Shown: positions 1 through 10,084 of the stretch, piece by piece
Position numbering within the stretch: position 1 is the stretch's first letter
How the letters are laid out: each line of letters starts with the position of its first letter
NCBI GenBank assembly: GCA_016840425.1
Contig: JAEOSI010000053.1
Span: forward strand, 1-11,400
DNA length: 11,400 nt
Reading direction: 5' to 3'
DNA from: Candidatus Wukongarchaeum yapensis
GTDB taxonomy: Archaea > Asgardarchaeota > Wukongarchaeia > Wukongarchaeales > Wukongarchaeaceae
Program-made: the position numbers and the translations under genes
The notes under the pieces: generated by a model
The model's database searches: none
What the model was told of the DNA's origin: nothing
What the model saw: the letters and a program-made list of their open reading frames with translations, nothing else

Positions 1-1031
1 AGAGAACAGGTTTTAGACGTGTATTTTTCATCCTTTTTCCTCGTCTTTATTCCGTGATTTTCTGCTGTTACTCTAAGCCTTTCGTAGATGTATTTAAAAG
101 ACCAGAAGTTGTTTATCATCGCATTAGCTTTTCTCCCTTTCATTTTCTTTCTACTGTTCTCTCTTATGTGGGTTATATCTCCTATGACGATTTCTGAAAC
201 TTCTTTTTCCCAGCAGTTTTTGACAAACCTCGCTATTATCATGTTTATCGAGTGTGTGAACCTTTTCTGCCTCTTCCTAAACAATCTCCTTAGTCGTCTT
301 GATGTTTTCCTTTTCCCGTTTTTCTCCATGATGCTTTGGTGTTCTCCTATTTTTCCGTTCCAGTACCACCAATCGCTTAACAAGCTTCTCCCAGAATATA
401 TTTCCGGTCGTTTTTCTCCTTCTATCCAACTGGTTATGATGTTTATGATCCCCAAGTCGACGTATGCCTTTTTGTCTGCTGTTGGTTGATGTAGGGGTTT
501 TTCTACCTCTACCGGCATATAGGCATACCATCTCCTTGAGAGGTCATCGTAACGTATCTCTAACCTTCCTTGCTTTTTTCCTTCCCACCTGTTCTTTCCT
601 TTCCACCTAACTTTTAGCCCGAAGGGGAGTTTTAGATACTTCTCGGAAAGCTTATAACAATTACACCTTATAAAAATAATTAAAACCCTCTTCTCCGTTT
701 TCCTGTCTTTCCAGTAGCCTGGAGGAGAAACCTTGCGTATGTGTTTTGGGAGTTTTCCCTCCTTTTTCAGCCTTAACAAAGCGAAGAAAGACTTCCAAGC
801 CTCGTTGTTCTTCCTTGTTACCTGTTGGGCTGTAGCAGAACCTATAACCTTCTTGTATTTGTGATAGGACTCGTCGGTGTTCCAGTCAAAGTTTCCTGAG
901 AAAAAGGACTGTCTTCTCTTATAGTTTACCTCGTTAAACATCCTTGCACAGTTATCGGCTAACTCGAACAGCCTTTGCTCTTGCTCTTTATTCGGGCTTA
1001 GTTTGAACGTGTTGGTTCTTCTTCTTTTCAT
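1..1031 (-). CDS. tnpB: RNA-guided endonuclease TnpB (IS200/IS605 OrfB), 3' end outside the window; 343 codons visible
   Basis: Manual translation from ATG at 1031 stays open to the window edge: MKRRRTNTFKLSPNKEQEQRLFELADNCARMFNEVNYKRRQ...SATAQQVTRKNNEAWKSFF...PPGYWKDR...KKAYVDLGIINI (RuvC-I D192)...EIVIGDITHIRE (RuvC-II position)...KDEKYTSKTCS (start of Zn finger). Absent from the ORF track because no stop codon lies in the window. Confidence 0.95.
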   Translation of the reverse strand, partial: MKRRRTNTFKLSPNKEQEQRLFELADNCARMFNEVNYKRRQSFFSGNFDWNTDESYHKYKKVIGSATAQQVTRKNNEAWKSFFALLRLKKEGKLPKHIRKVSPPGYWKDRKTEKRVLIIFIRCNCYKLSEKYLKLPFGLKVRWKGKNRWEGKKQGRLEIRYDDLSRRWYAYMPVEVEKPLHQPTADKKAYVDLGIINIITSWIEGEKRPEIYSGRSLLSDWWYWNGKIGEHQSIMEKNGKRKTSRRLRRLFRKRQKRFTHSINMIIARFVKNCWEKEVSEIVIGDITHIRENSRKKMKGRKANAMINNFWSFKYIYERLRVTAENHGIKTRKKDEKYTSKTCS

Positions 1032-1143
1032 TTAACAGCCTCTTTATCACGTCTGTATACGTGTCTCCTACCTTCTTCATCGACTTTAGCTTGTTTGCAA
1101 CTTCTCTGTGGATGGAAATCTTAACCTTATCCTTTTTATCCAT
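988..1143 (-). CDS. Small ribbon-helix-helix / antitoxin-like DNA-binding protein (51 aa)
   Basis: MDKKDKVKISIHREVANKLKSMKKVGDTYTDVIKRLLNE... has an alternating beta strand (VKISI) followed by two helices ending in TYTDVIKRLL, typical of archaeal CopG/RHH-like proteins. ATG at 1143 is preferred over 1197 because the TATA box lies between them. Overlaps the tnpB start by 44 nt. Confidence 0.75.
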   Translation of the reverse strand: MDKKDKVKISIHREVANKLKSMKKVGDTYTDVIKRLLNEKKKNQHVQTKPE

Positions 1144-1174
1144 TTTTACCCCAAACACCAAAAAGGATAAAAAA

Positions 1175-1189
1175 TATATAAACCTATCG
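1175..1189 (-). promoter_or_regulatory. Archaeal-type promoter (BRE-like + TATA box) for the RHH-tnpB transcript
   Basis: Minus strand reads GCGATAGG-TTTATATA, about 30 nt upstream of the RHH ATG at 1143, implying a very short leader. Confidence 0.55.
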
Positions 1190-1226
1190 CAACTCATCCC
1201 CGCCTAAAGGGCTGGGACCTTCTTGC
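1189..1226 (-). repeat. IS200/IS605 left-end subterminal imperfect hairpin
   Basis: Minus strand GCAA-gaaggt-CCCAGCC-cttta-GGCGGGG-atgag-TTGC: GC-rich core stem 1198-1216 with one mismatch, plus outer GCAA/TTGC pairing. Resembles the CCCCGCCCTTTAGGGCGGGG-type ends of this IS family. Confidence 0.8.
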
Positions 1227-1250
1227 TCACCTTCAGTAAAGAAATCATCA

Positions 1251-1280
1251 CTTCCCCCCTTCTCCTTTTCTTCTTTTTTT
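1251..1280 (+). terminator. 30-nt pure pyrimidine tract ending in T7; probable archaeal oligo-T terminator for a plus-strand transcript
   Basis: CTTCCCCCCTTCTCCTTTTCTTCTTTTTTT; same architecture as the tract directly after the HEAT gene (4821-4850, minus). Confidence 0.4.
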
Positions 1281-1385
1281 GAACCTTCTTCAAACAAAGG
1301 CTGTACCTCTTTTTTAAAGGGATTTGGGAGTATAATCCTTTGAAAATCACTTTGAAGGTATGGCGGTTTTGATTATTTTTCTTTT

Positions 1386-4280
1386 ATGGGGAAGATTTTC
1401 ATGAGGAAGTTGAAAAAAGTCAAAAGTAAGATGTTTTTTTCCTGTCTATTTATTAGCATGATTTTTGCTTTGAATATGGGGCTTGTTTCTGCCTATACAG
1501 CTCCCACCACTACCACGCTTACAATGGATAAAAATACAGCTTATTTTTTGGAAACGGTTACTTTTACAGCTCACGTAGAGAAGGTAGGAGGGTCTTCTTG
1601 GCCCATTGAGGGGGTTTTATGGTTCCACGATACGACTACGGGGCAAAACCTTTCAGATTCACCCGTGCCTTTAGACGTTTATAGTGAAGCTACTCTTGAA
1701 TGGACAGTACCTTTAGGCTATCCTTTAGGGTATCACGATATTAACGCGACCTTTATACCCGAGAACCCCCAGGACTATCAGTCGAGTAGCGATGTGGAGA
1801 TACTAGACGTTCTTGGAACAGGTTTTACAGCGAACCTAGCAGCTAACCCTGAAAAAGCTTACAGGGAAGAAACCTCGGTAAACCTAACAACCGTTTTAAC
1901 AGGGGCGAATGTTTCTAATAAGCTAGCTAAATACTACTACGAAGATTCAATAGGTCTAAACTATATTGGTCAAAGCGACGTAATAGACAATGTAAGCGTT
2001 TATCTTTGGACACCTGAATGGGTTATGGAGTTAGGGGGGACAACAGTGTGGGTTAAGATCTACAACGATTCAGACGAATACATGGGAATAAACGATTCAA
2101 CCCTTGTGGAGATATGGGATAAAACAGAGGTCTCTGTTTCTTATCATCAGGAGCCTTATTATCCTCAAGGGGTTGTGGAGGCAGATATCAGGGTTTTCCT
2201 TGCTTCAAACATCGGGGTTGATGTGGAAAATGCTACGGTGGAAGTTTATGATCTGTTAGATGATCAGCTTGTCGGGGTTTATGAGACGGATGAGGACGGT
2301 GTTTTCACGTTTATATACGATCCTCAACAAGTGGGACAGCACACGTTAAACCTGACCGTTTATCCTGAAGATTCCTTCGTAGAAGGAGACAACCATTACT
2401 CAACTTATATAGTGAATGGCGAGACCTTGATCGTTACAGAGGTTCCTGGAGAAGCTCAAAGAGATACGATGATCTACTTAAATGCAACCGTTTACTGCTA
2501 TGGAGAAATCGTTACAGAAGGCAACTTATTGTTGAAATACACCAACGGAACTATTATTGAGACCTTCCAAGTGATGGGGAAGGTGGTTTACGGATACTAT
2601 GTTTTTCCGAGCCACGAACTTGGAGAAATGGTTTTCTTCTGGGAGTATGAGGGTACTGTGATTTATGATCCTTCAAACTCTACTACGGATGTGGTGACTT
2701 TTTGGTCTATTCCTAATTTTGCTCAAGGATCTGTTAGTACTAATCCTACATCAACGATAACCGGGCAAAACGTGGAGATAAAAGGACAACTAATAGATGA
2801 AGTAGGTGAAGGGGTGGAAAATGCCCTTATCACATTGTATGAAGGGGGTAGTTTGAGAGGTACTGCTGTTACAGGGTTTGACGGTTGGTTTTATTACAAC
2901 TACAGCATAACAAGCAGCATGCCTGTAGGTTGGCATACAATTCTTGTAAAGTTTGAAGGAGAAGGTTCTATCTACTGTTATCCAGCACAAAGCAGTCCCA
3001 TGGTACAGTTCTTCGTGAGAACGCCTATCACCTTGACAATGGAGACAACACTTTACGCAGAAGAAGATGTAGATATTCAAGTGGAGGGAACTCCTAACCA
3101 CATGATTAATCTTTACTGGCAACAAGGTTCAGGAGGTTCTGCTAACTGGATCACAAACATTCCTTTAGATCAAAACGGGCAAGGCTCCACAACATGGAAC
3201 GTTCCCTACCATAAAGGGTTAATCCTCGTTTTTGCAAACAATAGTTATGGCGACACTGATTCAAAGACTTGCGAAGTATGGATCAAACCCACAGGAGACT
3301 TTACTAACCTACCAGCAAACGTGACTGTTAGTGAAGTTGTCAGTTTTTCCGTGCAGTGCAGTGAGAGATACAGGGTTTTAGCAAATCAAATGCCTGTTAC
3401 TGGTTGGTTTGCAGGGGAAACACAAAACCAGATAAGTTTAAGCTTTACTTCAAGGGGAGAACACGTAGTTGCCATAGAGGCAAACGACACTTATGTTGTT
3501 CACACGTTTATCGAGGAAGTAGTGGAAGCTTGGGATACTGTGCAGGTTACGCTTTCCTGTCCGAGTAGCGCGGATGTTGGGGCTCAGGTTACTGCAACGG
3601 TATATGTTGTAGGTGTAAACACAGGTCCTGTTTCAGGGACAACCGTACACCTTTATGCTGACAGTGTTATGGTTTCAAGCAGCATAACGGATTCTTACGG
3701 TGAAGCTACTTTCACGTTTTCTTTGCGTGAAAAAGGGACTTATAGTATGCAGGTTTTAAGCCTTGCTTCAGACTATTGTCAGCGAGGGGTTTCAAACATC
3801 GAAAGCTTAACCGCAGGTGACGGTTCGCAAGACCCTATAAACAATCCGCCGAGCATTGACAAAGTTTGGTATACGGATTACCCGAACACCTTTGTAGGGA
3901 TTAATGAAACTGAGGAGATGAAATTTGAAGTTACTATAAGTGATGATGGTGCTGTTTCGGCGGTTTATCTCCTAATTAGTGGTACGAGGGTGGATTTAGC
4001 ACAGATAAGCGATACTCTCTGGAAGGGTTCATACAAGTTTACAGAAAACGGGGATTATTCAATAACATTGGTTGCAGAGGATGATAAAGAAGCAAAAACA
4101 AGCATGTTTTTGTGCAGTGTGAAAGTTTTACAACCAGGCGGTTCAGATCCGCCCAGTAAAGGATCGGGCGACGGATCTGATAGTCAAGGAGAATCAAATA
4201 CAGCAAATCTCTTAACTGTTTCTTTGGTCGGGGTGACGATACTAGGCGTTTATTTCTTAACAAACAGGAAACAACAATAG
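1386..4280 (+). CDS. Large secreted cell-surface glycoprotein with tandem Ig-like beta-sandwich repeats and a C-terminal membrane anchor (964 aa)
   Basis: N-terminal signal peptide (basic MRKLKKVKSK, hydrophobic core, ..GLVSA). Recurrent Ig-like motifs (V.NA.V.LY...TD.DG.F.F.Y...G.H.I). Acidic, Thr/Val/Tyr-rich. 17 N-x-S/T sequons by manual count. G/S/D/P linker (PGGSDPPSKGSGDGSDSQGES), TM helix LLTVSLVGVTILGVYFL, short basic tail. Start may be 1386 or 1401. Confidence 0.85.
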   Translation: MGKIFMRKLKKVKSKMFFSCLFISMIFALNMGLVSAYTAPTTTTLTMDKNTAYFLETVTFTAHVEKVGGSSWPIEGVLWFHDTTTGQNLSDSPVPLDVYSEATLEWTVPLGYPLGYHDINATFIPENPQDYQSSSDVEILDVLGTGFTANLAANPEKAYREETSVNLTTVLTGANVSNKLAKYYYEDSIGLNYIGQSDVIDNVSVYLWTPEWVMELGGTTVWVKIYNDSDEYMGINDSTLVEIWDKTEVSVSYHQEPYYPQGVVEADIRVFLASNIGVDVENATVEVYDLLDDQLVGVYETDEDGVFTFIYDPQQVGQHTLNLTVYPEDSFVEGDNHYSTYIVNGETLIVTEVPGEAQRDTMIYLNATVYCYGEIVTEGNLLLKYTNGTIIETFQVMGKVVYGYYVFPSHELGEMVFFWEYEGTVIYDPSNSTTDVVTFWSIPNFAQGSVSTNPTSTITGQNVEIKGQLIDEVGEGVENALITLYEGGSLRGTAVTGFDGWFYYNYSITSSMPVGWHTILVKFEGEGSIYCYPAQSSPMVQFFVRTPITLTMETTLYAEEDVDIQVEGTPNHMINLYWQQGSGGSANWITNIPLDQNGQGSTTWNVPYHKGLILVFANNSYGDTDSKTCEVWIKPTGDFTNLPANVTVSEVVSFSVQCSERYRVLANQMPVTGWFAGETQNQISLSFTSRGEHVVAIEANDTYVVHTFIEEVVEAWDTVQVTLSCPSSADVGAQVTATVYVVGVNTGPVSGTTVHLYADSVMVSSSITDSYGEATFTFSLREKGTYSMQVLSLASDYCQRGVSNIESLTAGDGSQDPINNPPSIDKVWYTDYPNTFVGINETEEMKFEVTISDDGAVSAVYLLISGTRVDLAQISDTLWKGSYKFTENGDYSITLVAEDDKEAKTSMFLCSVKVLQPGGSDPPSKGSGDGSDSQGESNTANLLTVSLVGVTILGVYFLTNRKQQ

Positions 4281-4343
4281 ACGTATTGCTCGATAGTTGA
4301 TAACCAAAAAATAGCGACTGTTTAAACTTGGTTACAAACATAA

Positions 4344-4385
4344 CCTCTCTTTTTTTATGTTTTTTTTGTAGAGCTTTTTCTTTTT
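4344..4385 (+). terminator. Oligo-T terminator region downstream of the surface protein gene
   Basis: Successive T7, T8 and two T5 runs 70-105 nt after the stop at 4280. Confidence 0.45.
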
Positions 4386-4453
4386 AGATCTTAGCAGAGG
4401 GATTTTTTAAAAAAGAAAATTGGGCGGGAATATAGTTTGAGGTGGTATTGTTT

Positions 4454-4591
4454 ATGACCGGTCTTTTCGGTATTGGAAACTATGCTTTTGATCTGAAATC
4501 AGATCCAGATAAGATGAAAATATTTACATTTCTTATTGCAGTTCTTGTTTTGGTAATCGCCCTTTACGAAAATACTAGTTTTATGAGATAA
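4454..4591 (+). CDS. Putative 45-aa single-pass membrane microprotein
   Basis: Strong SD GAGGTGG at 4439-4445, 8 nt before the ATG. MTGLFGIGNYAFDLKSDPDKMKIFTFLIAVLVLVIALYENTSFMR contains a 16-residue hydrophobic segment. Below the ORF-track length cutoff. Confidence 0.5.
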   Translation: MTGLFGIGNYAFDLKSDPDKMKIFTFLIAVLVLVIALYENTSFMR

Positions 4592-5392: not shown

Positions 5393-6563
5393 GTTATACG
5401 CGGCTTCCCTTCGGATTTCCGCATCTTCATCTTTTAAAGCTTTTATGAGGGATTTTATCCCTCTCTCTTTTTTCGAAGAGTTATCGGGTATCGTCGTGTC
5501 CGCCGACCCTCCTTTATGTAATGTTATTTTTTTTAGTTGTGTTTGGTTGTGTTATGGGATATTATTATTTAATAGTACAATATCGTTGTACGTGCTGTGA
5601 TATTATTTACATTTTATGTAGTTATAGAGGAAAGAAGGAGTTCTCTTCCAGCTTTTAGAGAGAGGATAAAAAGGCGGGGGACGCACCTGTTTTTTAATAA
5701 AATACTATCGGTTGCCCGTCTACAGGTATTACTATACCTTTGTAGACACCCCATCCACACCCTTCTGTGCGAAACAGGTACGTCACTAGATATGATATTA
5801 TATGGTTTATAAAAGGGTTATAGGCAGGGGATAATTTATATACCCTATCTTAAATCTTCAATTTCTTACGCGATCTAATGGAAAGAAACAAGTAATTCCT
5901 TTGAAAGGGGTTTAGAAGCATCCTCAAAGGCGAAAATTCAGAATTAACATCTTTTAATTTTAAGTTTTTGAAACAAACAATTTTTAAACTTTTTTACACT
6001 TTTCACTTTTAATATCGGTTTAAGGAATTTTACGTCTTAGAGTTCTGTTGTGGGTAGGGCGTACCTATTTATGGAAAGGATATCGGAAAAGGGAGAAAAA
6101 TGATGACAAAAAACCGCGAAAAGGAAATAGGTGCACCGCGAAAATAATAAGACGGACCGTTATAAAAGATTGATGGGGGGAGGAACTAGAGGTGGGAGCG
6201 GAGCGGGATCAGAATAAAAGAGGAAAAAACATCCTCATAAACAAATTCAAGAAATAATCGTGAAAAGGGAGGTTATTCAAGTTTTACACATATGTTTAGG
6301 GGGAAATTTAGAAGATAATGCTCGAACCCCCTAAAAATATTGTTTTTCTTTGTCTATTGAAAGGGGGATTAATGATTTAAGACCTTCTTATCACTTTTTT
6401 AACAGGAAAGAAATGTAACTAATAAAGCCGTTTTTGGCGCGGGGTATAAATAGATTGCATTAGACATATATATGCGAGGTACGTTGTTTCTCATACACTG
6501 GGATTGTTCTCGGTATTTTGGTGGGTTTTTATGTGTGGTTGGAACATGAGGGGGTTATAGCTG

Positions 6564-7466
6564 TTGCATGTTAGTACTTCCCAGCAGCGTATTGAGCTTC
6601 ATGATCGAGTTTGGCTCCCTTTGTTGGCCATAAAATTGGCACAAGATTATGACCTTTTGGGCACGGTTAAGGTTCAGAAACTCGTTTTTTTAGCACTTGT
6701 GGAGGGAAAGCTGATGCAATGGTATCCTTTTAGAAAACATGCTTATGGGCCGTATTCTCCTTCCTTGAAGATGGATTTAATCCTGCTTGAGATGGATAAT
6801 TTGATCAAAGTAGAAAGAGGAATCTCGGCAAAAGGGTATTACTTCCGTGATTTTCAGTTGGCGGAGAAAGGGGAAGAGAAACTGCGCTCTTTAAAAGATG
6901 AAATCTTGGAAGATTGGAAGAAAGCCTTGAAAGTTTTGGATAAATGGGCGGGGAAAGATAGGAATGAAATCCTCTCGTACGTCTACGAGAAATATGTTAT
7001 TAAGGACATAAAATATGACGAGATTTTCAAGAGTGTCAAAGCGGATCTGGATTCATCGTATACTCTTTGGCTTAATATTTGTGATTGTCCTTATGCTTGT
7101 GATATACTTGCTTTTTTGGAGTACTGCAAGATGGTTTTTAAAGCTCTGCAAAAAGTCAAAGATAAGGTTAACAAATCAGTTTCTCTGAGGACTATAGAGG
7201 ATCTTACGAGTTTAACATTTTCATTATATAAGGAATGTTATCCTGTAATTCAAGGGGAAGGAAAATGTTTGTTAAATGAAGAGGCTTTTAACAAAGATTT
7301 CTTAGAGATTGAAGAATATTTCCTTTTTCTGGAAGATTATGTTTCTAGATATAAAATTTTCAGTAAGTTGGAAGACCTTGATTTTTCGGTGTTCTTTAAG
7401 GACGAGGAGGAAACTCGGTTTTGTCTTCAAAAGCTGCAGGAGGAATTCGAGAAGCAAGAGTTATAG
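6564..7466 (+). CDS. Panacea-domain (DUF4065 / SocA-like) antitoxin with a ~155-aa C-terminal extension (300 aa)
   Basis: SD GAGGGGGT before the TTG start. Panacea hallmarks: KVQKLVFL, F..HAYGPYS..L..DL..L, a F.L...G segment, and ILSYVYEKY. Lies directly upstream of, and overlaps, a PIN gene. Confidence 0.8.
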   Translation: MHVSTSQQRIELHDRVWLPLLAIKLAQDYDLLGTVKVQKLVFLALVEGKLMQWYPFRKHAYGPYSPSLKMDLILLEMDNLIKVERGISAKGYYFRDFQLAEKGEEKLRSLKDEILEDWKKALKVLDKWAGKDRNEILSYVYEKYVIKDIKYDEIFKSVKADLDSSYTLWLNICDCPYACDILAFLEYCKMVFKALQKVKDKVNKSVSLRTIEDLTSLTFSLYKECYPVIQGEGKCLLNEEAFNKDFLEIEEYFLFLEDYVSRYKIFSKLEDLDFSVFFKDEEETRFCLQKLQEEFEKQEL

Positions 7467-8080
7467 TGTTCCTAGAAACTTCTGCTTGTCTGAGACATGC
7501 GATTCGTTTCGAATCGGGTGGGAGAAAGGTTCATGGTGTAAGAACTGATATGATTTCTTCCTTTATAGGGAGCTGTAAGGAAAATCCAGAAATTTTGTTG
7601 GCGACTTCTGAAACCGTTATAAAGGAGGCTCGTGGAAAAATTTCTCTTGCTGTTAATAAAACTGTTAAGGAAGTGTTCCCAAAGAACTATTTCTCTTTAC
7701 GCCGTATTGCAGTGCAAAAATGTCAAAGGCGTCTGGATTTATTGCTAAACAATATAGAAACGGTTTCTGTTTCTAATCCTCCTTTTAGAGAGGTAGATGA
7801 TTTTTATCAAAATCTTCTTAAGAATAGGGATAAAAGGCTCTATGATATAGAAAATTCGAAAGAAAGAAAAGGACTATTACCTTCAAAGAATGATATTACT
7901 ATTCTTGCTGAAGCAGTTAAGCTACAAAGAGACCTGCAAAAACCGGTCGTTTTTGTAAGTGATGACATGGATTTTCACTATTTTAGTGAGGATATTGAGA
8001 GAATTTTTCATTTCAAGGTGTTGGCTGTTAAAGGTTTGCCTGTTGGCAGTAATATCGAGGAATTTCTGAAGGCTTTGTAG
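7421..8080 (+). CDS. PIN-domain protein (putative ribonuclease toxin), 204-219 aa
   Basis: PIN motifs in order: VIVFLETS (E at the first acidic position), SETVIKEAR, PSKNDITILAEA, VVFVSDDMDF. Start is either TTG 7421 (GAGGAGG 10 nt upstream) or GTG 7466, overlapping the upstream TAG (TAGTG). Confidence 0.8.
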   Translation: MSSKAAGGIREARVIVFLETSACLRHAIRFESGGRKVHGVRTDMISSFIGSCKENPEILLATSETVIKEARGKISLAVNKTVKEVFPKNYFSLRRIAVQKCQRRLDLLLNNIETVSVSNPPFREVDDFYQNLLKNRDKRLYDIENSKERKGLLPSKNDITILAEAVKLQRDLQKPVVFVSDDMDFHYFSEDIERIFHFKVLAVKGLPVGSNIEEFLKAL

Positions 8081-8338
8081 GTTATAAAACATTACTAGCT
8101 CAACAAAACAAAATGATGATTTGTTTTTAAGGCATTGGAAAATAGTGTCCTATTTGACCGGTTTTGCATGCAGATGATTGCTGTTTCTTCTTCTTCTGCA
8201 ACAAACAGAACACCATAAACCTTAATCGATCAAACATCGCTAGAACCAATGCTGAAATTTGAAGTCTTGCAAAGCAGTATTTGGGCGAATTTGTAAAGTG
8301 TCGAAGCCATATATACTCTGTTGTATGAAATTTTGGCT

Positions 8339-8974
8339 TCATATTTCTATCACTTTACCAGCTCCTCCTTCGACATATTTCTCAGGATATAGTGACTTTA
8401 TTGTTGACTTAAACTGGGTACAATGAGCGGGACAGATGAAATCCAAATCCTCGAGCAAATGGAAATCGTTGAATCCATGCAAACCCCCGATAAGCGCTCG
8501 GGCTTTTCCAAACTGCGATGCCGCTTTCAGAATGTTTTTAACTTCGGGATGGGAGCATCCCACGATCACAACCAGTCCCTTTTCTGTCTTGATTGCGAGA
8601 GATTGTTCTATATTCTTGAGTTCGCCGGTTGAAAAAATATTTTCATGGATTTTAAGAGGTTCTTTTACTTTAATCGCTTCTCTTGCGCTATGCGGTTTCG
8701 GGCATGACAATGGAATATAAACTTTGACCGGGGTTATCTTGAGAAAATCTGAAAGTCCTCCTGTGTGATCCCAATGAGCATGGGAAATGAAAATCTCTTC
8801 AATCATGGTAGGATTTATGTTAAGTTTTTTCATATTTTCGAGAAGTATAGAGCCGTTTGCACCGGTATCAAAGAGTATTTTTCTATCATATGCCTCTACA
8901 AGGCAGGAGAAACCCCAGTCAGCTTTAAGACCTTCTTTCCATGCTTCGTTATCATAAATAATGGTAATTTTCAT
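8339..8974 (-). CDS. Metallo-beta-lactamase-fold hydrolase (COG1237-like), 211 aa
   Basis: ITIIYDN, WGFSCLVE, ILFDTG, SHAHWDHTGG (HxHxDH), GCSHP, GGLH, PAHCT. SD AGGAGGT; ATGA overlap with the upstream UDG stop. Confidence 0.92.
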   Translation of the reverse strand: MKITIIYDNEAWKEGLKADWGFSCLVEAYDRKILFDTGANGSILLENMKKLNINPTMIEEIFISHAHWDHTGGLSDFLKITPVKVYIPLSCPKPHSAREAIKVKEPLKIHENIFSTGELKNIEQSLAIKTEKGLVVIVGCSHPEVKNILKAASQFGKARALIGGLHGFNDFHLLEDLDFICPAHCTQFKSTIKSLYPEKYVEGGAGKVIEI

Positions 8975-9744
8975 CTTATTACCTCCTTACATAATTTGTG
9001 CAATCTTTCATCAATGCTTCCATCTGGAAGCATCCAATCTGGATGTGGTTCTCCCCTCTCTTCCATTTGATAACGGATACAGTTTTCCCAATCTCCTTTA
9101 CAGTATAGTTCGACCCATTCTTTACTTAATTTTTCTTCTTCATAAAATCTTTTCATCGGGCATATAGGATACCATTTGCAATCTATAAGAAGTACTTTCA
9201 TCTTATGGTAATTTTTTATCATTTTTTCTTTAATGGAACTGTTATAGAGAACAGCGGCAGGATGCTGCAAAGGGAGTATTTTTTTATCGCTAGCCAAAAA
9301 AATCTTACCATAAACCTTGTGAAATTCTGGTTTAGGAGGCAGTTGAATATCATGTTTTTCAAAGATATATTTAGTCGCATAATAACCCAGCGGGGCTATT
9401 ACTGCTGGATTTATTAATTCTATCTCCTTATCTAAGTACTTACTGCATGTTTCAACTTCATCCCTCTTTGGCCTCCTATATTTCGGAAGCATGCATTTAA
9501 TCAGGTTTGTCATGTAAATCTTTTTTCTATCGATATTAGTCGTCCTTAATAGTTCATCTAATACTTTTCCTGAAGGTCCGATGAACATTTTTCCTTCTCT
9601 ATCCTCATTCTCTCCGGGCGCTTGAGCAATGAGCATGAGTTTAGCGTTTAGATTTCCCTCCCCGCAAAGAGCTTTTATTCTGGTCTCAGATAGTCTGCAT
9701 TTGTTGCATTTCTTTATCCTTTCATTCAAGTCCTCGATCCCCAT
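8971..9744 (-). CDS. Family-4 uracil-DNA glycosylase (variant motif A) fused to a C-terminal Cys4 domain, 257 aa
   Basis: [4Fe-4S] cysteines (CNKC, KC, ETC); AQAPGENED..G..FIGPSGKVL; YMTNLIKC; motif B HPAAVLY. An extra ~70-aa tail begins at CKWYPICP (about 9180). Confidence 0.9.
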   Translation of the reverse strand: MGIEDLNERIKKCNKCRLSETRIKALCGEGNLNAKLMLIAQAPGENEDREGKMFIGPSGKVLDELLRTTNIDRKKIYMTNLIKCMLPKYRRPKRDEVETCSKYLDKEIELINPAVIAPLGYYATKYIFEKHDIQLPPKPEFHKVYGKIFLASDKKILPLQHPAAVLYNSSIKEKMIKNYHKMKVLLIDCKWYPICPMKRFYEEEKLSKEWVELYCKGDWENCIRYQMEERGEPHPDWMLPDGSIDERLHKLCKEVIR

Positions 9745-9796
9745 TGTAATGCCCTCTCTGCTTGAGCTATTTTCAACATTATAACAACACGCGCAA

Positions 9797-9806
9797 TTTT
9801 ATATAA
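9797..9806 (-). promoter_or_regulatory. Putative TATA box for the UDG-MBL operon
   Basis: Minus strand TTATATAAAA about 52 nt upstream of the ATG at 9744; SD-like GAGAGGG at 9758-9752. Confidence 0.4.
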
Positions 9807-9863
9807 TTTAATATGTGTGGAACTCGTTTTTTGCTCCAATAAAACTTTTGTAAAACGTATTTT

Positions 9864-9894
9864 GGGGTTAGGGGGGACTGGGGATGTTTAGGGG
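9864..9894 (+). other. Potential G-quadruplex-forming sequence
   Basis: GGGG-TTA-GGGGGG-ACT-GGGG-ATGTTTA-GGGG: four runs of at least 4 G with 3/3/7-nt loops; a fifth G5 run at 9912-9916. Confidence 0.5.
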
Positions 9895-10084
9895 ATGTTT
9901 TTGAAGTTTTTGGGGGTTTTTGTGCTTAGTAATATGTGTCACTAAATAATGCAGGGTCTGTAAAATCTAACCCAAGTATCTAAAATGCTAGACAAAGAGG
10001 GGGTAAGAGTAGCATAGAACGAAAAAAAGTGGTATGGTCTTTTTCCTAAGATGGAATCACTTTGAGAAAATCATAGGATAAAGA

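Follow-up and report, generated by a model that had tools for sequence, protein, structure and literature searches.

Two overlapping genes, here termed A and B, lie on the forward strand of an 11,400-nt stretch of the Candidatus Wukongarchaeum yapensis genome (contig JAEOSI010000053.1 of assembly GCA_016840425.1), referred to below as the window. The first 150 residues of the gene A product form a divergent Panacea domain, gene B encodes a predicted PIN-fold nuclease, and together they probably constitute a type II toxin-antitoxin system of the PanAT kind. An earlier sequence-only reading had proposed two overlapping, same-strand genes at this position, and both were recovered as open reading frames (ORFs; Table 1) with full-length homologues elsewhere. 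The start of gene A is fixed at TTG 6564, as an in-frame stop at 6558–6560 rules out an earlier one. Two starts were considered for gene B. The last G of the gene A stop codon (TAG, 7464–7466) is the first base of the GTG at 7466, which opens the short form, and the long form overlaps gene A by 46 nt. Gene callers took the long form on related contigs; the PIN fold starts at the short form, and residue numbers for B refer to this 204-residue form throughout. Full-length homologues of A and B, at 18–51% identity, recur paired in the same way in ten distinct metagenomic lineages, and comparison of gene B with its counterpart in a near-identical strain revealed 8 synonymous and 2 non-synonymous codon changes. 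Given the homologous pair in ten lineages and the predominance of synonymous changes in B, both genes are real. No Pfam, NCBIfam or PADLOC model spans either protein, which agrees with the earlier expectation that the pair would lack a full-length match to a catalogued system. Neither gene is visible to annotation, and the labels used here rest on profile-profile and fold comparison, not on a library match at threshold.

To describe the gene B product, its structure was predicted with AlphaFold2 (AF2) from the family alignment of 24 sequences, giving a predicted local distance difference test (pLDDT) value of 95.9. Comparison of this model with VapC2 (3zvk_A) gave a Z score of 11.8 and a root-mean-square deviation (rmsd) of 3.0, the alignment taking in 132 of the 134 VapC2 residues. 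In the fold search, VapC/FitB-type or archaeal stand-alone PIN domains filled the top 9 rows and 18 of the top 20, and nearly all of the 22 chains at Z of at least 8 were PIN domains. Foldseek concurred, with a probability of 1.00 to many VapC chains, so that both methods give B the PIN fold, as the earlier label had it. An exhaustive HMMER search with B against 1.84 billion representatives returned 48 relatives (22 of them below 1e-10), with ∼25–40% identity and lengths of 150–230 residues. Within the family alignment Y114, P139, D143 and D167 are invariant, T50, E54, F173 and E176 are nearly so, and members with a complete N-terminus begin L-E/D-T-S. The four acidic residues of B, which are invariant or nearly so in the 24 sequences, are predicted to occupy the canonical topological positions of a PIN active site. 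The model assigns the ∼70 extra residues to a β-hairpin (15–22), two very long helices (49–70 and 72–95) and two added helices (107–132). Weak Pfam matches were distributed over NYN (7/24 members), PIN_12 (5/24) and PIN_4 (2/24). Searches with B alone of NCBIfam and PADLOC, and of Protein Data Bank (PDB) sequences, gave no match, and the B profile found only a weak NYN-like match in the PDB (2qip, E 0.004). On its predicted fold, gene B encodes a PIN-fold nuclease of putative activity and toxicity.

The assignment of gene A was approached through the SocA_Panacea family (PF13274), for which the Pfam gathering score is 25.7 bits. At this score gene A gave no match and a six-frame scan of its own genome was empty; six of the ten A-family members showed weak PF13274 matches only (best E 0.0059). 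For profile-profile comparison, five proteins were taken from the same phylum, each of which scores above the SocA_Panacea cut-off of Pfam. Here, hhalign matched the A family to the Pfam-passing set with a probability of 97.15% and an E value of 4.8e-11 over columns 15–147 (123 columns), and the A family's hidden Markov model (HMM) scored the Pfam-passing proteins of contigs L027 and L026 at 52.4 and 42.6 bits, respectively. The L027 protein, of 322 residues, is followed by a LAGLIDADG endonuclease gene. The motif YGPYS is present in A, and its G-P is kept in every A-family member that covers the site; G-P is invariant in the Pfam-passing set too, where the third residue varies (W, Y, F, V or T). 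The KLQKLxF...YGPYS block of the A family holds the G-P of the published GPV-type signature, which is important in Panacea domains and sits in a small sheet beside the central helix (PMC8832971). The best structural match to the A model was the C-terminal toxin-binding domain of DarG (7yk3_D; Z 13.2, rmsd 3.5, 131 residues aligned, A residues 12–205). Rows from the structure atlas include SocA_Panacea and DarG clusters, and PADLOC and NCBIfam models match residues ∼18–157 of A via Panacea-like parts, namely the C-terminal part of DarG, PDC-M19A and a fused type I S subunit. A 2026 paper reports homology between DUF4065 proteins and the DarG C-terminal domain (CTD) (PMC13621843). The N-terminal part of A also resembles PadR-type winged-helix regulators (Z ∼9–10). 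The first 150 residues of A are a divergent Panacea/DarG-CTD-like domain; the Panacea label given to A beforehand is sustained by the match of its family to the Pfam-passing proteins, with Pfam itself silent.

Residues ∼150–300 of A are helical and conserved within the family, with the features LAFxEY, a conserved Cys loop and E-F-F...L...EEE..R. Searches with this C-terminal half returned generic helical-bundle matches only, under the level that is meaningful for helical proteins, and language-model look-alikes that all scored <0.8. A PDB sequence search with A alone gave no match, and its profile gave no meaningful one. A 20-codon tandem duplication in a loop of gene A, which keeps the reading frame, is a population polymorphism; its joint ("goes back 56", with 7 letters between) was observed in three of four metagenome runs.

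The conservation of the pair was assessed in the ten lineages with enough upstream DNA (the window together with contig L012 as one lineage, and contigs L015, L016/17, L018/19, L020, L021/22, L079/80, L081, L082 and L083). Two more contigs with a B relative stop too near B to show the upstream gene and stand outside this count. In every one of the ten, a full-length A relative (∼290–310 residues) lies directly upstream of B on the same strand, either overlapping it or a few bases apart. Co-conservation of the two genes, the lack of which had been named beforehand as grounds for giving up the module, therefore extends to 10 of 10 informative lineages. Pairwise identities of A and of B correlate across eight lineages (r 0.70), the pairs not being independent of one another. 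Given that the flanks vary by lineage, the conserved unit is the two-gene module.

A search of 400 genomes of the phylum, among them a member of the same genus, found no relative of B, and the organism's own genome (a 2.16-Mb, 92%-complete metagenome-assembled genome, MAG) contains no paralogue. In the genome of the same genus, G399, the flanks are kept at 79–88% identity, and window positions 6348–10080, which carry A, B and genes for a metallo-β-lactamase (MBL)-fold protein and a uracil-DNA glycosylase (UDG), are swapped for 1162 nt. The replacement (L090, 241–1403) holds a 169-residue tetratricopeptide repeat (TPR) gene and a small membrane ORF of 90 residues. Mobile genes found beside other copies of the pair comprise an rve integrase, an IS110 transposase and a phage-type integrase. 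The module is rare, and its distribution is accessory and mobile-like. The locus is present in DNA metagenomes from 11 studies, which sampled marine sediment, seawater, mangrove and marsh, and no RNA dataset with the locus occurred among the public runs listed. Word-index homologue searches found near-identical proteins only, and genome contigs searched with the B query alone yielded no relative.

Structure prediction of A together with B gave interaction prediction scores from aligned errors (ipSAE) of 0.67, 0.67 and 0.81 (median 0.67), as against 0.00 for the best of three controls. An ipSAE of at least 0.67 is seen in 58 of 80 solved complexes and in 2 of 110 mismatched pairs, counts that are only rough because alignments made for this analysis were used as input. 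Between runs, 77% or more of the contacts agreed, and partner pLDDT did not fall below 79. Confident contacts were predicted between residues 170–190 and 269–300 of A and residues 5–6, 9–10, 13–27, 62–84, 131–132 and 166–168 of B. The predicted interface thus sets the C-terminal extension of A on the family-specific β-hairpin and helical hairpin of B, beside E4 and D167, with the Panacea core outside. This controlled prediction supports direct binding of A to B. Given that the predicted contacts fall on the A extension and the B insertions, a co-evolved docking surface that covers the active site best accounts for the additional residues of the two partners. The sequence-only reading had proposed that the additional mass may serve sensing or regulation; in the models these regions appear as mutual binding surfaces instead.

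We put the probability that the pair is a type II toxin-antitoxin system of the PanAT kind, PanA-PIN, at about two in three. This reading starts from what is established, namely the predicted folds of both proteins, the acidic residues of B, the homology of A to Panacea, and the co-conservation and accessory distribution of the pair. Overlapping genes on the same strand, with that of the antitoxin first, give the locus toxin-antitoxin anatomy. The product of gene B, whose toxicity, substrate and mode of release we infer, would be a PIN endonuclease that depends on Mg, most likely acts on RNA and arrests growth when free. Gene A would be translated just upstream of gene B, to which it is probably translationally coupled, and its product would act as an antitoxin that binds B directly. 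Complex formation with the toxin is known for PanA antitoxins (PMC8832971), and some of them neutralize it through add-on N- or C-terminal elements, with Panacea in an accessory role (Ernits 2023, PMC10440598). Such add-on neutralizers have been demonstrated by experiment for Phd-C helices, PAD1 and a zinc-binding domain, and where an add-on neutralizes, Panacea has been proposed to be accessory and perhaps sensory (PMC10440598). Following the same principle, the neutralizer of the present pair would be the C-terminal helical domain of A (residues ∼170–190 and 269–300), not the Panacea core. The extension may clamp the β-hairpin 13–27 and the long helical hairpin 62–84 of B and reach residues beside the catalytic E4 and D167, so that the active-site face would be covered. 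The Panacea/winged-helix-like N-terminal domain would then be free for regulation, dimerization or a trigger. Of the Panacea-plus-PIN module proposed at the outset, the conserved two-gene pair with its toxin-antitoxin anatomy stands, but its kind had already been described.

Several observations count against this interpretation. Gene A has no Pfam match at E of at most 1, and thus none at the curated cut-off, and its AF2 model reached only a moderate pLDDT of 77. The Pfam test for the PIN clan gave 21.1 bits for PIN_4 on B, as against a cut-off of 21.9, and hhalign comparison of the B family with four canonical PIN domains returned a probability of 3.4%, which is not significant; it is thus the predicted fold and the motifs that carry the PIN assignment. 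At the first acidic position of the PIN active site, most B-family members have Glu in place of the usual Asp. The complex score quoted above is a model confidence and not a measurement. Finally, gene A is split by a frameshift beside an intact B in three contigs that represent two lineages (L018, 4132–5005; L019, 2320–3169; L079, 77–960). Contig L080 carries a B identical to that of L079 together with an intact A, and the split genes could be either assembly errors or real antitoxin decay. If they are not assembly errors, B is not lethal without A.

Comparison with known systems places the pair closest to the PanAT network, in which PanA antitoxins (DUF4065, PF13274) pair with dozens of toxin folds (PMC8832971). 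Like these, the locus is bicistronic with the antitoxin first, has a Panacea-type domain with the G-P motif and is expected from the models to involve direct binding. An add-on neutralizer with an accessory Panacea is likewise documented, for C. doosanense PanA (Phd-C helices acting against Doc), for PAD1 and for the MqsA zinc-binding domain (PMC10440598). By contrast, A escapes Pfam, its add-on, a C-terminal helical domain of ∼150 residues, falls in no known family, the PIN toxin carries matching family-specific insertions, and the hosts are uncultured archaea in which the pair is known here from sequence and models.

The pair shares with VapBC a PIN fold with four acidic residues and an overlapping antitoxin gene upstream, and the C-terminal part of A is predicted to lie over the active-site face of the toxin as VapB tails do. 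However, A is unrelated to the VapB families, and B is ∼70 residues larger, has mostly Glu as its first acidic residue and carries an SxDGDF motif closer to NYN/PIN_12. An assignment to VapBC in the strict sense was rejected, given that A has no ribbon-helix-helix (RHH), AbrB, PHD/YefM or MerR-type domain and has instead the fold of Panacea/DarG-CTD. The DarG CTD of DarTG, which binds and inhibits its own toxin, is the best structural match to A, and the DarG-model matches of A fall in the C-terminal part of that model. DarTG itself was rejected as an identification: A matches the DarG model at 174–305 of 338 only and lacks the macrodomain (no Macro match), the partner is a PIN and not a DarT ADP-ribosyltransferase (DUF4433), and contact is predicted via an extra C-terminal domain. 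The PADLOC candidate PDC-M19 was also rejected, as A matches only 18–122 of 294 positions of PDC-M19A and the B family has no match among the PDC models; the searchable literature does not mention "PDC-M19".

A canonical archaeal pair occurs in the same phylum on contig L026 (887–1977, minus strand; genome G087), where a 223-residue Panacea protein (33.6 bits, over the cut-off) is followed by an overlapping 145-residue PIN_3 protein (48.4 bits). The two loci share the order of Panacea and overlapping PIN, and the Panacea parts align (BLASTP E 3e-6), whereas the L026 proteins, both recognized by Pfam, have neither the C-terminal helical domain nor the PIN insertions. The Kurata 2022 dataset (PMC8832971) lists an untested combination of PanA with a PIN-like class, T38, in Actinobacteria. 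With this class listed and the L026 pair present in the same phylum, the view that the module is of an undescribed kind is not upheld. The principle is not new, as both PanA plus PIN-like pairs and add-on neutralizers have been published. Novelty lies in the family, whose Panacea domain has diverged beyond the reach of Pfam, whose 150-residue C-terminal domain has no relatives and whose PIN subtype has matching insertions. On the 3.68-Mb contig L020, the A-B pair has a second Panacea-like gene 3 kb away (8414–9427, minus strand; ∼333 residues, with the Panacea part in the C-terminal half). This gene is followed by a 370-residue gene of no known family, and the two may represent another PanA-toxin pair.

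The best placed of the alternatives, though an improbable one, is that the locus is an antiviral abortive-infection module, in which the complex would be the resting state and Panacea would sense a viral cue and release or activate the PIN to degrade host or viral RNA. Such a role is possible on the strength of one neighborhood, that of L082, where the copy is flanked by a type II restriction-modification pair, by a GmrSD_N gene and by a weak match to BrxC/BrxD. Within this defense island (313–4590 and 12214–12543), an N6_N4 methyltransferase gene accompanies one for a BsoBI-type endonuclease, besides GmrSD_N and the weak BrxC/BrxD match. In addition, the L016 copy lies in a cluster with MazE and RHH-plus-PIN genes, the PADLOC candidate PDC-M19A is matched by seven of ten A-family members (best E 1.6e-15), and family members also match DarG and type I S subunits in their Panacea-like parts. 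The position of the Panacea core outside the predicted interface would suit a sensor, as has been hypothesized where an add-on domain neutralizes (PMC10440598). Against this, B has no PADLOC match, viral contigs searched with three queries contain no relative, and recognizable defense neighbors are absent at most loci, this window included. With 1 of 10 loci in a defense island and the others not, the antiviral or abortive-infection role put forward earlier is not borne out. A more specific version, somewhat less probable still, is an abortive-infection switch in which the free Panacea domain would sense a viral or stress cue and allosterically release the PIN via the C-terminal clamp, the PIN insertions having evolved as the docking site. 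If true, it would bring a new neutralizer domain, a new PIN subtype and a structural handle on the triggering of Panacea antitoxins.

The main alternative to a toxin-antitoxin function, which we consider doubtful and slightly less probable than the switch, is that B is a non-toxic RNA- or DNA-processing nuclease and A a winged-helix DNA-binding protein that controls the specificity or expression of B, the two serving, for example, in the maintenance or regulation of a mobile element. The NYN and PIN_12 families, to which several B members show weak matches, include processing enzymes. The likeness of the A N-terminus to PadR-type regulators, the Glu at the first acidic position of B and the frameshifted A genes beside an intact B in L018, L019 and L079, which may be assembly errors, also fit this proposal. 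However, the best match to A is a toxin-binding antitoxin domain and not a regulator, A shows significant homology to Panacea, the active-site face of B lies under the predicted contact, and the sporadic accessory distribution is unlike that of a housekeeping enzyme. That the genes are chance or mis-called ORFs in AT-rich DNA, as their unusual TTG and GTG starts and the lack of a curated family match at threshold might suggest, is refuted by the full-length homologues in ten lineages, the very confident fold of B, the excess of synonymous over non-synonymous changes and the duplication allele that stays in frame, and its probability is negligible.

The positions of the genes, domains, active-site residues and candidate signals are collected in Table 1. 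The possible TATA box and the possible terminator are tentative.

Table 1. Features of the A-B locus, in window coordinates
Feature	Position	Strand	Basis and remarks
TATA box, possible archaeal, TATAAATA	6445..6452	+	Tentative; sequence reading only; ∼110 nt upstream of gene A
Shine-Dalgarno-like GAGGGGG	6548..6554	+	Sequence; 9 nt upstream of the gene A TTG
Gene A, putative PanA-like antitoxin	6564..7466	+	ORF, TTG start, 300 aa; coordinates include the stop codon
A residues 1–150, divergent Panacea/DarG-C-terminal-like domain	6564..7013	+	KVQKLVF...YGPYS motif, hhalign, fold match
A residues 151–300, family-specific helical C-terminal extension	7014..7463	+	AF2 model; predicted toxin-binding segments 170–190 and 269–300
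In-frame 20-aa tandem duplication allele, low-confidence loop of A	7245..7300	+	320-aa P0006; metagenome reads
Shine-Dalgarno-like GAGGAGGA	7404..7411	+	Sequence; 9 nt upstream of TTG 7421 (long B)
Gene B, PIN-fold nuclease, putative toxin	7421..8080 (TTG, 219 aa) or 7466..8080 (GTG, 204 aa)	+	
B E4, first PIN acidic residue	7475..7477	+	Alignment (E or D in family); after strand 1
B E54, second PIN acidic residue, T50...E54 motif	7625..7627	+	Nearly invariant; helix after strand 2
B D143, third PIN acidic residue	7892..7894	+	Invariant; helix N-terminus
B D167, fourth PIN acidic residue, FVSxDGDF motif	7964..7966	+	Invariant; after strand 4; aligns to motif of NYN-like 2qip
Oligo-T terminator, possible, TTTGTTTTT	8120..8128	+	Tentative; sequence reading only; 40 nt past B

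The isolation of the pair described in the sequence-only reading, with ∼1 kb of non-coding DNA on the left and a convergent operon on the right, was confirmed. The left spacer (5393–6563, 1171 nt) has no supported ORF and none with a family match, and on the right lie the convergent MBL-fold and UDG genes. Scans for Rfam families (E of at most 1) and tRNAs in the window and the 1.17-kb spacer gave no match, and repeats within the spacer were short matches only, probably due to chance. The spacer, beyond which lies a divergent HEAT-repeat gene, is 97% identical in a related strain and slightly more diverged than the flanking genes. It contains a GGGGG...CCCCC hairpin at 6290–6340, and a piece of it (window 5650–5939) was found on two G399 contigs. 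The UDG-family gene (8971–9744, minus strand) lies within the segment absent from the genome of the same genus and encodes 257 residues with a Cys-rich C-terminal part. Relatives of its product at 55–83% identity occur in MAGs labeled Thermodesulfobacteriota, WOR-3, Thermoplasmatota, Jordarchaeum, Zixibacteria, Aenigmatarchaeota and others, a scatter over very different bacterial and archaeal phyla for which mis-binning, a mobile element or horizontal spread of unusual breadth may account. A TnpB (OrfB_IS605) gene (window 3–1197, minus strand) runs off the left end of the window and is preceded by a 69-residue ORF with a VapB-antitoxin-like PF02697 match, which overlaps the TnpB start. The 92%-complete genome encodes a TATA-binding protein (TBP), which marks it as archaeal, and McrA was not found in it.

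In summary, the A-B pair adds to the Panacea toxin-antitoxin network an archaeal family that is invisible to annotation. Pfam, NCBIfam and PADLOC would miss the pair, and profiles of the A and B families could be used to annotate archaeal metagenomes. With a predicted contact wholly within the add-on domain and matching PIN insertions, and the Panacea core left free, the pair offers a test case that bears on a question raised in the PanA literature, namely the role of Panacea when it is not the neutralizer.

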